From Eledone cirrhosa (lineage: Eukaryota): DNA of 64,000 bases. The DNA lies in the NCBI GenBank assembly GCA_964016885.1, contig OZ024747.1, positions 86,676,001 to 86,740,000 on the forward strand, read 5' to 3'. The position numbers and the translations under genes were made by a program. The notes beneath the pieces are model-generated. The model was not told where the DNA came from, ran no database searches, and saw nothing but the letters and a program-made list of their open reading frames with translations. Positions within the stretch are counted from its first letter, which is position 1; each line of letters starts with the position of its first letter. Of the stretch, positions 4,094 to 60,896 are shown one piece after another.

Positions 4094-4454
4094 TTAGAAA
4101 GTGAGGTTTTTTTTTACAAAATGAAAAATAACCGAGGTGTCCTACACGAGTGGAAGTATAAAGAAAAAGAGATGAAATCGAAAATGCAACTGAAGTCTTA
4201 TTTTTTTTTTAAATATATATATTTATTTGGTTCCTTTACCGGTTTCGCAGTTCTTCTGCTTTTCAAAAGGTGAGTTGAGATGGAGGGTCTGTGGTTTTTC
4301 TCACATGTGAGAAAAACCACAGACCCTCCATCTCAACTCACCTTTTGAAAAGCAGAAGAACTGCGAAACCGGTAAAGGAACCAAATAAATATATATATTT
4401 TAAAAAAAAATAAGACTTCAGTTGCATTTTCGATTTCATCTCTTTTTCTTTATA
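4094..4454. mobile_element. (TA)n-flanked foldback of a putative Penelope-like terminus with hammerhead scaffold
   Basis: Near-perfect palindrome 4157-4454 with axis at 4305/4306 and (TA)n on both sides; hammerhead-like scaffold at 4341-4378 and its mirror; single-arm relative at 60479-60681. Confidence 0.7.
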
Positions 4455-5517
4455 TATATATATATATATATATATATATATATATATATATATATATATA
4501 TATAATATATATATATAATTGGTTATGCACGAGTGCATTAATGTTTTCCAGGACACAGTGTTATGTACCGTGTAGTGGAATGTCAGCTTACAACAGAGTG
4601 GTGCTCAACGAAATGCAAAAAAAAAGTGTATATTCCAGTTTAGCTATATTCCGGGGCTTGTATAAAGAATTAAAAAGAACAGAAAGATGCAGTAAAAGAG
4701 ATTTATTCGGTTCTTACGTACGTTTCAATAGACATCAATTTGCCTAGATCTCGCTACATCTATAATATTATATATTTAGTAGAGCATTCGATATCCAATG
4801 CACAATTGATCCCATATCATCAGATATATTATATATATATATGTGTGTGTGTGTTTGTGTGTGTGCGTGTATATATATATATGTGCGTGCGTATGTATGT
4901 GTGTGTGTGTGTGCGTGCGTGTGTGTGCGTGTGTGTGCGTGTGTGCGCGTGTGTGTGTGGTGTGTGTGTGTGTGTTATGTGCATTTACGTGAGCTTTTAG
5001 AACATCGATGCATGTTTATACTTCGGATGTATATATCATCACTGTTTCTCACACATCATCTCACAAGGAATATTTACTGGAATATCTGATTAACGTTTGC
5101 ATGTGACAAAAATAATCGAATTATATTGTTTCAGAATTTGGATTGCAAATGAGAACATATTAGGTATATATTTTAGTTTATATTGAGGTCTAATTAAACC
5201 CAGATCTCGCAGAAGTATGTCTAAAAACATTCAAATTACGACAATCTCCCATATATATTTGGAATAATGGAACGCTGACAACATTTTCCTATGTGATTTT
5301 CCTTTTAAAAGATACAAAGATATATGGTTTAAAAGTATAAATAATTGCTGCAATTTCTTGCTTATTGATTGATCACATCGGGGATCCTTTGATGTTGTTT
5401 TTTTAATAGTATTAGAGCGGTGTGCAGTTTCTGAGAATCGAAACACGTTCAGATTTGGTACTACATTCAGTCTCTGGTCGTTTCTCATTATCTTTCCTTA
5501 TATTCAAGGCCAATGAT

Positions 5518-5653
5518 GCAGATATAACTGCTACAATGCAGATATAACTGCTACAATACAGATATAACTGCTACAAAGCAGATATAACTGCTACAATGCA
5601 GATATAACTGCTACAATGCAGATATAACTGCTAAAATGATACAGATATAACTG
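5518..5653. repeat. 20-bp minisatellite (GCAGATATAACTGCTACAAT) x about 7
   Basis: Direct observation. Confidence 0.95.
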
Positions 5654-6104
5654 AAGCTATCAAAGTACAGAATTCTTTCGTCTATTATTGTGGTGAATAA
5701 ACAGAGCACCGAAGACAGTTAACGAATATTACTTAGTCCGCCCGAAAAACACTGGTTTATGTACTCTTAATATCTTCACACCAGCTATGTCAATATAATA
5801 CATGCTGGAGAATACCGTATTATGTCGACGTAAAAATATATAAAATGTATCGACTAAATCAACAATTTTGAGCACATGAAAAAAAAAAAATTGATTCAAA
5901 GCACACAAATGAAAAACCCTTGAACAGAATAACATTCTAAACACGGTGTGACAGTTAACAAATTAGTACACCTCTCTTCAATTATCTCACGTGATGTCCA
6001 TACTGAAACCTGTAGTAGTATAATTAAATAGAAAATGTATATGTAGGTATGTATGTATGTATGTATGTATGTATGTATGTATGTATGTATGTATGTATGT
6101 ATGT

Positions 6105-6431
6105 ATGATGTTGACTTGATCTTCTTTTTGGTAAATATCATCTTGGTTAAGAGAGTGGGACTGGCTTTGTGCAGTGCCTTTGCTCACTATAAAAGCTTCA
6201 CGGCACAGGCATTGCTTTATAACTGGAAATCTCTCTGCACTTGTCGTCACATGGTACCATGAGCCCAGCACTATGTGTCAATAATTGTGTCAATAAAAGT
6301 GTAGTGTTTGTATCAGAGTTTTCAAGTCGCTGGCTGGACTAAAAAGTCACACTCGTTCAGCGCATCGGTAGGGGTTCTCCTACATGGATATAAAGTAGTG
6401 GCCGTACTCGAAAACGAGTTGGCAGCCACCA
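6105..6431 (+). mobile_element. Truncated copy of an ~600-bp non-coding retroposon family
   Basis: Reverse complement of 13089-13404; flanked by (ATGT)n and (GT)n. Confidence 0.75.
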
Positions 6432-7094
6432 TGAATGTATGTTTGCGCATGTGTGTGTATGTGTGTGTATGTGTGTGTGTGTGTGTGTGTGTGTGTGTGT
6501 GTGTGTGTGTGTGTGTGTGTGTGTGTGTGTGTGTGTGTGTGTTTGTTTGTGTGTTTTTATATGTGTGTGTGTGTCTGTGTGTGTGTGTGTTGGCAATCCT
6601 TTTAATTTTGACACTCAACAACCTTTCAATTCTCCGAAGTAATTGTGGAGCTGTTATAGTCTTGGCGAGTTCTCTTGCTTTTACTGATCGAATTGATTTG
6701 TTTTTTTAAATCGTACTTGTACTTGTTTTATGGAGATCTTGAAGTAATTACTTCGTTTAAATGGTAGTTCTTGGTTCACTTGAGGCAACATACCGGAAAA
6801 ATAATTGAAATTTCGATTCTGTGTAATTATTTTCAAGAAGAGCATATAAAACATATCTAAATAAAAGAAAGTTTCAAATGGATTTTAACATGAATCTTAC
6901 AACAAAGGTTCGTGTATGCTCAACTCAGTAGATGTGTGACACTAAGAAGAAATGAGAGAGCGAGTGCGGGATAAAGAGAGGGATTGGGGGAGAGAGAAGG
7001 AGTAAGGAAGAAGAAGAGAGCAGCGGTGGGTGTGGTTCCGAAATGTTTATTTATTCTGATGGCTTTGTGCAAAGCGGATGGTAAGAGTATGTTT

Positions 7095-7420
7095 GTGAAA
7101 GAGAGGGAGAGCAGGTAATATGTGATAGAGTTTCTCCATCCATGCCACATATTTTACATATATCACTTCCTGCTGTGTGATCTACTCTATGTTTGATGTA
7201 GTTAGTTCTTAGTACTTGTTCTTGAGCAGCACAGATTAAGGCTTCTGTTTCCGGCTTTAGATCAATTTTAGCCACCCATAACCACCTTTTTCTCTGTCTG
7301 TCCTATCTTCAATAACTCTATAGAATTGTTCACACATTCCTTTTTTCTGTCCATCTACTATCAGTTTCATCCATCTTCAAATGGTTGTACTGTGTTTTTT
7401 CTTTACATCCTTCTATTTTG
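7095..7420 (-). mobile_element. R4/Dong-type RLE LINE fragment
   Basis: DLKPETEALICAAQEQVLRT...CKICGMDGETLSHI: AAQEQ motif plus the CCHC finger that precedes the RLE domain. Confidence 0.85.
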
Positions 7421-7604
7421 AACAAACCTGACCTTCTTATGTGGGAGTGAATAAAATGAGATAGAAGTTAGATGCAGGTAAATAAGGAAACAAATAAATA
7501 AATAATGGAATTGTAGTAAAAGGGGTGGGGGTAAGTGAAATGTATACAGCATGATATAAAATATATTATATGTAAAACGTGGTATCAAGAATAAGACGTG
7601 AAAT

Positions 7605-58818: not shown

Positions 58819-58835
58819 TATATATATGGCTGTAT

Positions 58836-59120
58836 TACAGAGGTTTTTCAGACTTCTTCAGGACAAACATTTATTAAATTCAAAGAAGTACAAATCTATA
58901 ACTCCTTCAAAGTTGGATCGTCTTACTTCAATGCACTTGTTGTAGCATCTCATCCACTTCCTGATGACCCCATGGAGGTCCTCCAAATTGAAGAGGGCCA
59001 GGACTCTTTCACAGCCTCCTTCATGCTCTCATTGTCTTGAAAACGACTGCTCGTGAAAAAAACAAAAGAAATTTCGGGAGTGTGTGACAGTTTTGATACT
59101 GTGTTGGTTTCTCGAGGACA
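58836..59120 (-). mobile_element. mariner 3' relic
   Basis: Manual translation WMRCYNKCIEVRRSNFEG resembles the mariner C-terminal KCI..G.YFEG. Confidence 0.5.
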
Positions 59121-59275
59121 TTTATATATATATATATGTGTGTGTGTGTGTGTGTGTGTGTGTGTGTGTGTGTGTGTGTGTGTGTGTGTAAAAGGTAAAC
59201 AGAAATAACAACATAATCAGTAGAGTATATGAAAGGAATATATTAGGTTAACGCTTGATATAGCAGGAAGAGGGT

Positions 59276-59309
59276 CTTGACGTTTCGGAGGCTACTCCTT
59301 CATCAGAAA
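59276..59309 (-). ncRNA. Minimal hammerhead candidate
   Basis: ttt-CTGATGA-a ggag tagc ctcc-GAAA-cg-TC-aag; weak stem I. Confidence 0.55.
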
Positions 59310-60478
59310 TGAGAAATAAGATAGATTGAGGGGACGGGTGGGTTGGAATTGGAAAAATTGTCTTTAGATAAAAATAACAAGTCCATTCATGTTGACATCA
59401 TATTTTTTAAAACCTTGGAGCAATAATTAATTTTAACTACATATAACGGGATTCAATCCTCTGCAAAAATATTACCAGACTTATAAATGAGAAAAACGAT
59501 TTTTTTTCTAATTTACAAACGAGATAACTAGTTTTTCTATTGCAATCATCATTTGGCGAGTTATTTCTATCTTTAATAGACCTATATATAATCCTTTAAC
59601 ACATTCCAGTATTAAACCATGGAAAATAATTTTATTTTTCTATTTTGTGTTCTTCAATTATTTAAACTGGAAACTGAAGTGTGCATATGTGTGCGTGAGT
59701 ATGCGTGCATGTGGATAAAATGTAAGTAGGATTAAATGATCATGATAAACCAATACACATTTGGTGACGCTGTGTGAATATGTAAACAAAATCAATAAAG
59801 ATTTATTTCAAATTACTAAATAACCAGAAAAAAAGGTTTCCGTTTACATAATTTTCACTCGCTTAGCTTCGGTCACCCTTTGGCTAAACTCATGTTTATA
59901 AAGCGTACACATGTAAACATATTTATGATTTATTTATCCACACAGGAGATTTTTTCACCCATTTCATTCCAATCCCATCCCCTAGGTTAAACTATGGGTA
60001 AATTTTTTAATTGAATTTACGCGTGTAAAAGTATTTACATCTCCTGTAAACAAAGCGAGATGTTCTCTCATTACTTAAATAACTTAATGCACCCCGCCAG
60101 CTTATGTACTGATATTCTGATACGGAATTGACTAAAATCGATGCCTGTTTCTCGAAGTTAATCTCAAAGGAATGTGGTTGTACGTGGCACTCCTACACTA
60201 CACACACACACACACACACACACATACATATATATGTATATATATACACATACATACATATATACGTATATATATATATATATATATATATATATATATA
60301 TATATATATATATATAAGCAAAAGGGATATTCAATTTGTTGGTAATTTAACAAATATAAACGTTTATAAATGATTCAAAGAACTCGACAAGTTTTCTGGA
60401 GTATAATATTCAATGATATTAAATAAATGGAAAGTATATTTATAAAACCATATTTATTCTATTATAAATATATATCAA

Positions 60479-60681
60479 TGTGAGAAAAACCACAAACCCT
60501 CCATCTCAATTCTACTTTTGAAAATCACAAGAACTGCGAAACCGGTAAAGGAACCAAATAAATATATTTAAAAAAAACAAGACTCCAGTTACATTTTCGA
60601 TTTCATCTTTTTTCCTTATACTTTCACTCGTGTAGGACACCTCGTTATTTTTCATTTTGTAAAAAAACCTCACTTTCTAAT
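60479..60681 (+). mobile_element. Single-arm relative of the 4094-4454 element
   Basis: Reverse complement of 4094-4305 with substitutions; ends in (TA)n. Confidence 0.85.
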
Positions 60682-60691
60682 ATATATATAT

Positions 60692-60896
60692 ATAGGAACG
60701 AGTAGGACCCCGACGGCTGAGCTCAAGCCGTTTCGACGGCTAATTCTGGACTATTTTAGTCTAGAATTAGCCGTCGAAACGGCTTGAGCTCAGCCGTCGG
60801 GGTCCTACTCGTTCCTATTACCCACTCTACTACCCTAAGTATAGAGTACTTTGGTGTGTTATGGTCCACCTGGTTCCTTACCACATTTCCTTCGTT
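60692..60896. mobile_element. (TA)n-flanked foldback containing the 3' half of a hammerhead
   Basis: Palindrome 60692-60818 with axis at 60755; GAAA-cggct tgagctc agccg-TC at 60776-60798. Confidence 0.7.

Follow-up and report, generated by a model that had tools for sequence, protein, structure and literature searches.

The 64,000 nt of Eledone cirrhosa DNA analysed here (contig OZ024747.1 of assembly GCA_964016885.1, positions 86,676,001 to 86,740,000 of the forward strand, hereafter the window) contain a series of short and diverse repeats that carry type I hammerhead ribozyme (HHR) motifs and run on their 3' side into (TA)n arrays. These repeats are very probably the 5'-truncated 3' ends (pseudo-long terminal repeats, pseudo-LTRs) of several families of Penelope-like elements (PLEs) with a C-terminal endonuclease (EN), together with derivatives that lack open reading frames (ORFs). 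That the endonuclease chose the arrays, that families without coding remnants also descend from PLEs and that any of the hammerheads cleave is what we infer. The arrangement is a new instance of a system already described, as minimal PLE HHRs, U3-A8 cores, opposite-strand pairs and a (TA)n bias have all been published; distinctive here are the local density, a hammerhead with a long helix III in an ORF-less unit of ~540 nt, and junctions that possibly record how inversions are formed. All scans, counts and remnant searches refer to this one window, which is AT-rich repeat DNA of animal type with abundant microsatellites, reverse transcriptase (RT) ORFs of long interspersed elements (LINEs) and a multi-copy short interspersed element (SINE).

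Motifs were sought with a descriptor for type I HHRs consisting of a CUGANGA (C3-G8) or U3-A8 core followed by GAAA and UH, with helices I and II, in which an extra nucleotide was optional and helix I was of at least 3 bp. This strict scan found seven motifs, in families A, B, D, E and G, families being delimited by self-BLAST and alignments among the loci of the window. Over 200 block-dinucleotide shuffles (500-nt blocks) the mean was 0.035 strict motifs per window and the maximum 1, none reaching 7, and the reversed and complemented window gave no strict match. A relaxed scan that tolerated one defect added 40988-41026 (41.0 kb), 51350-51434 (51.4 kb) and 52008-52054 (52.0 kb), with one defect each and scores of 11-15.6; at a score of at least 11 there were 10 matches in the window compared with 0.23 per shuffle (30 shuffles). 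The excess of hammerheads is strongly non-random. Type II and type III descriptors gave no match in the window, and Rfam gave no hammerhead family among 131 window matches to E 10, nor within 50800-51000; minimal HHR variants are reported to have required custom descriptors (PMC4209133). Two candidates were discarded, a relaxed match at 16504 with a score of 7.5, which is at shuffle level, and 22662-22914 (minus strand, near 22.87 kb), where short unique segments between TA arrays hold a hammerhead box-1 word and a small hairpin and GAAA is missing.

An initial annotation of the window had placed hammerheads in nine mutually dissimilar families. Its sites at 4.3, 14.1, 50.9, 54.0/54.8 and 59.3 kb were found by the strict scan and those at 41.0 and 51.4 kb by the relaxed one, whereas 55.3, 60.5 and 60.8 kb are absent from both. 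Nor are the families all dissimilar: the 60.5 kb copy belongs to the 4.3 kb family and that at 55.3 kb is a relative of the 54 kb family, and the nine become seven lineages (4.3/60.5, 14.1, 41.0, 50.9/51.4, 54/55.3, 59.3 and 52.0 kb), the last of which had been passed over. The half motif at 60.8 kb was rejected as independent evidence, as such motifs number 37 in the window against a mean of 30 (maximum 41) in 30 shuffles, which is the level of chance. Nine of the 12 insertions are packed into 50.6-60.9 kb, forming one 10-kb cluster, and the broad radiation proposed in the initial annotation would be an extrapolation from this one stretch.

The proposed closeness to TA-rich junctions holds throughout. 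At all seven loci found by the scan an array of at least six TA units lies 40-267 nt to the 3' side of the predicted cut, the 5' distance being greater at every one, and none of 200,000 random draws matched this (per-site background 0.107); a local null of +/-2.5 kb gave ~4e-5. When sites listed by hand are counted, all 15 of 15 have such an array to their 3' side, at a distance of 20-267 nt. As a control 14 SINE anchors were examined, and of the 13 with a downstream array only one has it within 300 nt. By hand count the 3' ends of these families adjoin 14 of the 31 merged TA arrays, in one case through (CA)26 and in another at an array that belongs to the half-motif family.

The link to PLEs is most direct in family E and its relative family F, which comprise the following features.
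53834..54552, minus strand: family E body, 5'-truncated within the endonuclease, its 3' untranslated region carrying an HHR at 53989-54031 and ending in (TA)n at 53807-53833
54244..54552, minus strand: remnant of a C-terminal endonuclease (GIY-YIG), with one internal stop and with CCHH-type residues present
54553..55010, plus strand: inverted 5'-truncated copy of family E, with an HHR at 54746-54790 and an extension of ~54 nt ahead of the TA
55075..55517, plus strand: family F, distantly related to E, whose 3' terminus and hammerhead frame it shares, with a decayed HHR at 55271-55312

The GIY-YIG remnant is on the same strand as the family E HHR and upstream of it, which bears out a tie already suggested by the initial annotation, and the inverted copy is joined to it at its 5' break. 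Both HHRs are minimal with an extra nucleotide after A9 (strict scan), and the two arms are 96.8% identical. Family E fits the published layout of a truncated ORF, an HHR in the 3' repeat, an adjacent inverted 5'-truncated copy and a one-sided tail (PMC8557442). The best full-length match of 54244-54552 is the C-terminus of a 1089-aa PLE RT-endonuclease protein (46% identity); in the best homologue, P0002, a telomerase-like RT is present by motif, this domain being truncated away in E. A Cx2-7CxxC linker is found in 35 of 39 informative homologues and has been lost from the window copy, the form that marks the Neptune/Nematis clade being Cx2-5CxxC ahead of the EN. Three PLE-like homologues (P0002, P0047 and P0082) combine a C-terminal GIY-YIG with a linker spacer that is short and an RT3-RT4 distance of ~131 aa, which is available from only these three, in which both motifs were found, and is about twice that in the canonical rows of Fig. 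S1 of PMC8557442. None of the three has a Pfam RT match at E 0.01, and they may form a lineage outside the published exemplars. With an EN profile built from 75 homologues no endonuclease remnant other than that of family E came to light in the window. Compared with E, helix II of F has two compensatory changes, C-G to U-A and A-U to G-C, whilst its helices I and III are damaged; this covariation is the sole comparative evidence for selection on the hammerhead fold.

A further coding remnant lies well away from family E.
15016..15514, minus strand: N-terminal remnant of a PLE RT, frameshifted, with DKG and LP..Y...K.HK motifs
It has pairwise E values of 0.003 and 4e-4 and an Atlas feature match to DUF8422 clusters, has no Pfam or database match and no tie to any HHR family in the window, and indicates that another PLE body is present. 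An open frame at 39707-40150, in which PLE RT motifs A-B can be made out by eye only, was not counted, having no Pfam match, no Atlas match and a best pairwise E of 0.3 (P0079).

Inverted pairs, as the initial annotation had it, are a recurrent feature, and besides that of family E there are five such units.
4095..4454, no strand assigned: inverted unit of family A, built head-to-head from arms with 99% identity, with a tail that makes the left one ~62 nt longer
4233-4270, minus strand: minimal type I HHR of family A with a U3-A8 core, a palindromic CCGG helix III and a GUA triplet (strict scan)
4341-4378, plus strand: HHR of the other arm, identical to the motif at 4233-4270 (strict scan)
60478..60679, plus strand: second copy of family A, 89.6% identical over 212 nt, its 5' start being that of the 4.3 kb arms
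50606..50992, minus strand: inverted 5'-truncated copy of family D with a full 3' end and an HHR at 50864-50948
50993..51604, plus strand: partial tandem of family D, formed by the 3'-terminal 156 nt (50993-51148), a single-copy segment of 156 nt and a 3' end with HHR
51690..52089, no strand assigned: family K inverted pair with an HHR-like motif at 52008-52054 (plus strand), absent from the initial annotation
52333..52597, no strand assigned: family J palindrome, both ends in TA, one-sided tail of ~37 nt, no HHR in the strict and relaxed scans
60692..60896, no strand assigned: family I palindrome with a one-sided tail of ~78 nt and a 3' half HHR-like motif at 60776-60805 (plus strand)

In the five units of families A, D, K, E and I, where orientation can be read from the motif, the arms are head-to-head with their 3' ends outward, and J (52333-52597) has the same build with the hammerhead absent. 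One arm is 37-90 nt longer than the other in all six units, and the spacers between arms reach 327 nt. The unit of family A at 4.3 kb has (TA)n at both ends (3971-4094 and 4451-4517) and arms that overlap by a 2-nt AT with no loop, and the copy at 60.5 kb has a decayed HHR at 60514-60551 in which helix II is broken. This overlap and the common 5' nucleotide of both A loci despite 10% divergence suggest that the RNA may have had a defined 5' end and that cDNA may have annealed to cDNA.

Family D has an implied unit of ~539 nt in which the longest stop-free frame is of 79 aa, and its arms are 93.6% identical, with both substitutions and indels. The HHR at 50864-50948 (minus strand) has a full hairpin helix III and passes the strict scan, and in that of the plus-strand 3' end (51350-51434) helix II has A.C at its base; this end is ~83 nt shorter and terminates in (TA)n. 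Helix III is predicted to be stable (p 0.94-0.98), but helix I (p 0.0-0.22) and helix II have to contend with alternative structures; on this account a clean monomeric ribozyme was rejected for D, yet a fold close to that of an HHR was the minimum in one folding run. In family K both arms have C for U at core position 4 and there is a GAAA tetraloop on helix II; the left arm has lost 17 nt of helix II and has a longer 3' end, and the C4 core may represent either a variant or shared decay. Family J is a near-perfect palindrome of 230 nt centred at ~52446, its arms 98-99% identical with no spacer, and is a candidate Naiad or post-ribozyme PLE end. The half motif of family I consists of GAAA, helix III and UC only, and the palindrome, which has one G.U pair and a loop of 5 nt, has its centre where loop II would lie.

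The remaining families are represented by single arms.
13985..14167, plus strand: solitary end of family B, with a TA tract on either side
60317..60466, minus strand: relative of family B, 90% identical over 50 nt
40875..41126, minus strand: family C solo end, which enters (TA)n at 40855-40874
59190..59320, minus strand: family G end, 5' limit not defined, which enters (CA)26 and then (TA)n

The HHR of family B (14069-14129, plus strand, strict scan) has a helix I of 8 bp, one mismatch in helix II and a palindromic helix III, with a predicted cut after 14121 and a fold z of -3.3. In its relative at 60317-60466 homology to B begins 0-4 nt from that predicted cut, an ambiguity due to those 4 nt being TATA, and this relative, the 5' end of which is at 60466, is joined head-to-head over a short TA tract to the copy of A that starts at 60478. 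The HHR of family C (40988-41026, minus strand, relaxed scan only) is weak or decayed, with U.U at the base of helix II and a CUU triplet, and folds no better than shuffles. That of family G (59276-59309, minus strand, strict scan) has an intact core and helix II, an extra nucleotide, GUC and a helix I of 3 bp.

Taken across families, traits of the HHRs correspond to the PLE consensus (PMC4209133), with the extra nucleotide after A9 in E, F and G, U3-A8 in A, and palindromic helix III. The structural criteria for PLEs (5' truncation, an inverted adjacent copy and a one-sided tail) are seen in A, D, E, K, I and J, with a partial tandem in D. What is upheld of the initial annotation is that these are Penelope-type ends, that they enter (TA)n with the 3' end first and that several families coexist, one of them physically tied to a C-terminal GIY-YIG.

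In the mechanism that we propose the GIY-YIG endonuclease would nick (TA)n, which reads identically on both strands, and the RT would prime cDNA at the nick from one or other of two internal start sites close to the RNA's 3' end, giving a long and a short arm. Opposite-strand cDNAs, or one folded-back cDNA, would then be joined at their 5'-truncated ends to give a head-to-head inversion, as would follow from priming on both strands of the self-complementary (TA)n. Each insertion would leave TA on both sides as a target for the next family, and a pile-up could follow. For the Poseidon element PAc of Anolis it has been described that both strands are nicked, in an AT-directed manner, and extended, and that the tail arises through two internal RT start sites (Frangieh et al. 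2024, PMC11167929), from which the unequal arms in six of six units would be expected. Insertions here span the cut site, which implies that uncleaved RNA was the usual template, as it is the main substrate of PAc. The hammerheads would act in a tandem precursor RNA, the minimal ones as dimers, and most genomic copies are probably inert passengers.

What the inversions would do if transcribed can be predicted from read-through folds, which give long duplexes in the six inverted units with longest helices of 36-116 bp; in all four units in which it was followed (five motifs) the read-through hairpin leaves the HHR helices at a pairing probability of 0.0. Hairpin and ribozyme are thus predicted to be mutually exclusive within one transcript. 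The inversions could supply long double-stranded RNA, and the statement in the initial annotation that these ends seed both ribozymes and such hairpins would seem to be overstated. Templates edited by ADAR were considered and rejected, as there is no A/G excess between arms in the element sense (1 A/G against 8 C/T in D, 2 against 5 between A and the 60.5 kb copy).

The likeness to published systems is extensive. As in the minimal HHRs from the pseudo-LTRs of metazoan PLEs (Cervera and de la Pena 2014, PMC4209133), for which cleavage has been reported to be weak and confined to dimers, the motifs, most of them minimal themselves, are of type I with a short or palindromic helix III, extra nucleotides between 9 and 10.1 and U3-A8 cores, with extreme heterogeneity within a genome, mostly single truncated copies, and opposite-strand pairs 100-700 bp apart. 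That study gives ~2,000-9,000 minimal HHRs per genome, compared with seven strict motifs in 64 kb here; it ascribes a large hairpin helix III, as found in family D, to fungal and protist PLEs, and the C at core position 4 of family K differs from the minimal HHRs it describes. The order of a C-terminal GIY-YIG followed by an HHR-bearing 3' repeat, the adjacent inverted 5'-truncated copy, the one-sided tail and the bias to microsatellites or (TA)n are shared with C-terminal EN+ PLEs such as Neptune and Nematis and with Hydra (Craig et al. 2021, PMC8557442), whose tails are of 30-40 bp as against 37-90 nt here. The same study describes inverted 5'-truncated PLE copies and ties the microsatellite bias to a zinc-finger linker. 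The CCHH residues of family E argue against Hydra, and E with its C-terminal EN and HHR is not of the Naiad type, which has an N-terminal EN and no canonical HHR. Insertion next to earlier copies has also been published (PMC6765202). PAc differs in that it is described as cutting AT-rich DNA generally and not (TA)n arrays, and in that no RNA-seq reads are reported to end at its HHR site, whereas here the junction at 60466 falls at a predicted cut.

Several observations weigh against the origin of these ends in C-terminal-endonuclease PLEs. A coding remnant accompanies one of the seven HHR lineages: no EN or RT remnant was found in the window beside A, B, C, D, G or K with the EN profile and tblastn, and tblastn with 10 long PLE-like proteins produced no convincing match next to B, C, D, G, J and K, although such an absence is expected for short 5'-truncated ends. 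Within the window the linkage to Penelope ORFs looked for by the initial annotation is seen for E and not for those other families. In the homologues of the remnant the linker spacer is of 6-9 aa (17 of 39 matched), Nematis-like and not Neptune-like in its length, which together with the long RT3-RT4 region of three of them makes any assignment to a clade tentative. Single-motif folds are mostly no stabler than shuffles (z<-2 in two of eight). In dimer co-folds, which speak neither way, helices I and III cross-pair into a duplex in A, C, E and G, and B and K adopt different structures. Family G adjoins (CA)n before TA, within (TA)n a target-site duplication is not discernible, and short arms end in a TA-like overlap of 3-4 nt whilst Frangieh et al. 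describe priming without target homology, an overlap of this size being weak evidence in AT-rich DNA.

It may instead be that most of the families have no past as parts of coding PLEs and are non-LTR retrozymes or SINE-like RNAs in their own right, with borrowed PLE proteins; we regard this as a real possibility, if clearly the less favoured one. Non-LTR retrozymes are likewise ORF-less units with type I HHRs and are described as PLE-dependent (PMC7229834; bioRxiv 10.64898/2026.07.22.740005); D is an ORF-less partial tandem of ~539 nt whose helix III is long, the start nucleotide shared by both A loci suggests a defined RNA of ~210 nt, and the U.U at the base of helix II in family C is also known from the axolotl HHR_Amex2 of the retrozyme literature. 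Unlike retrozymes, no head-to-tail array with two complete HHRs was found in the window by the strict and relaxed scans or the repeat listing, D having one HHR per strand, and D is longer, with a PLE-style inversion and TA-flanked ends; furthermore short solo ends are a normal outcome of 5' truncation (PMC4209133). The difference from a pseudo-LTR origin is mostly one of ancestry and not of mechanism.

A second suggestion, to which we would give a similarly low but not negligible probability, is that the palindromes of J and I derive from Naiad elements, which target (TA)n, have the same inversions and lack a canonical HHR. Octopus Naiads with a (TA)n preference are on record, one marked HHR_half_core (Craig et al., PMC8557442), and J is without an HHR whilst I has a half motif only; however, the two have been set beside Naiad by description and not by sequence.

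It is improbable that the TA tracts expanded from AT-rich ends once the elements had inserted, or represent templated tails, with no targeting at all. TA is on the 3' side of every locus and short arms end at internal TA-like words, as would be expected from this, but long and short arms with different internal endpoints both enter TA, B, C and the copy at 60.5 kb have short TA at their 5' flank as well, and a (TA)n preference of Naiad and Hydra and a microsatellite bias of Neptune have been published (PMC8557442).

That the palindromes are miniature inverted-repeat elements or fold-back DNA transposons of Tc1/mariner type, with a TA target and incidental hammerheads, is very unlikely and for A, D and E largely refuted: although the arms are inverted with both ends at TA, and the window has a weak integrase-core match at another place (12762-13121, E 0.039), the fixed-length symmetric terminal repeats of such elements are not seen, the arms being unequal in six of six units, single-arm copies occur (B, C, F, G and the 60.5 kb copy of A), E contains a PLE GIY-YIG and the HHR excess is far over chance. 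Fold-back artefacts of sequencing or assembly, which the arms of A and J (98-99% identical with no spacer) might bring to mind, are hardly credible given arms that differ by substitutions and indels (93.6% identity in D, 96.8% in E), a one-arm deletion in K, one-sided tails and spacers of up to 327 nt.

What PLE hammerheads do and how PLE inversions arise have both been declared open questions (PMC8557442, PMC11167929), and a genome rich in short, diverse and TA-anchored ends is one in which junction statistics could address them. A more ambitious reading, which at present is doubtful, would have a hammerhead load of ~10^5 in the genome and an under-described TA-targeting PLE lineage, with ORF-less, monomer-capable, long-helix-III units that bridge PLEs and retrozymes and with junctions at 60466, 60755 and 60466/60478 that record mechanism. 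Each of these junctions is a single case: at 60466 a 5' end that stops at the ribozyme cut would reflect cleavage in vivo, at 60755 a palindrome on loop II would reflect fold-back or cDNA-cDNA annealing at the hairpin, and at 60466/60478 two families head-to-head would mean that two RNAs took part in one event. If this reading were true, a pile-up of 5' junctions on HHR coordinates would test both inversion formation and ribozyme cutting. Among the matches listed for Octopus or cephalopod together with ribozyme no title has the hammerheads of cephalopods as its subject, and an annotation of octopus repeats from 2026 gives 31 recently active PLE families, the word ribozyme not being used in its accessible text (PMC13282606).

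The window contains a number of other repeats. Two further families (13090-13695, 6105-6430 and 44494-45011) end at TA-rich microsatellites and have no HHR in either scan. An intact-looking two-ORF LINE lies at 32661-38346, with a 743-aa ORF1 and a 1152-aa APE-RT-zf ORF2 whose nearest named match is Tx1-like. LINE RT copies with a C-terminal zinc-finger and restriction-like endonuclease region are found at 28402-31837, 38703-39662, 23129-23914 and 62895-63944; they end at (TCT)n, (ATT)n or (TATG)n repeats and we take them to be R4/Dong-like. The SINE, which would seem to be of an octopus-like type, is ~190 nt long and multi-copy, with 14 anchors (for example 1790-1970, 7912-8327 and 58623-58819) and one tandem pair of 204 bp, and its inverted copies could pair in long transcripts. 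Finally, a 20-bp tandem array of ~77 copies at 17879-19557 is flanked by two SINE pieces and changes orientation at 19407/19408, leaving 7.5 inverted copies, and would fold into a long hairpin.

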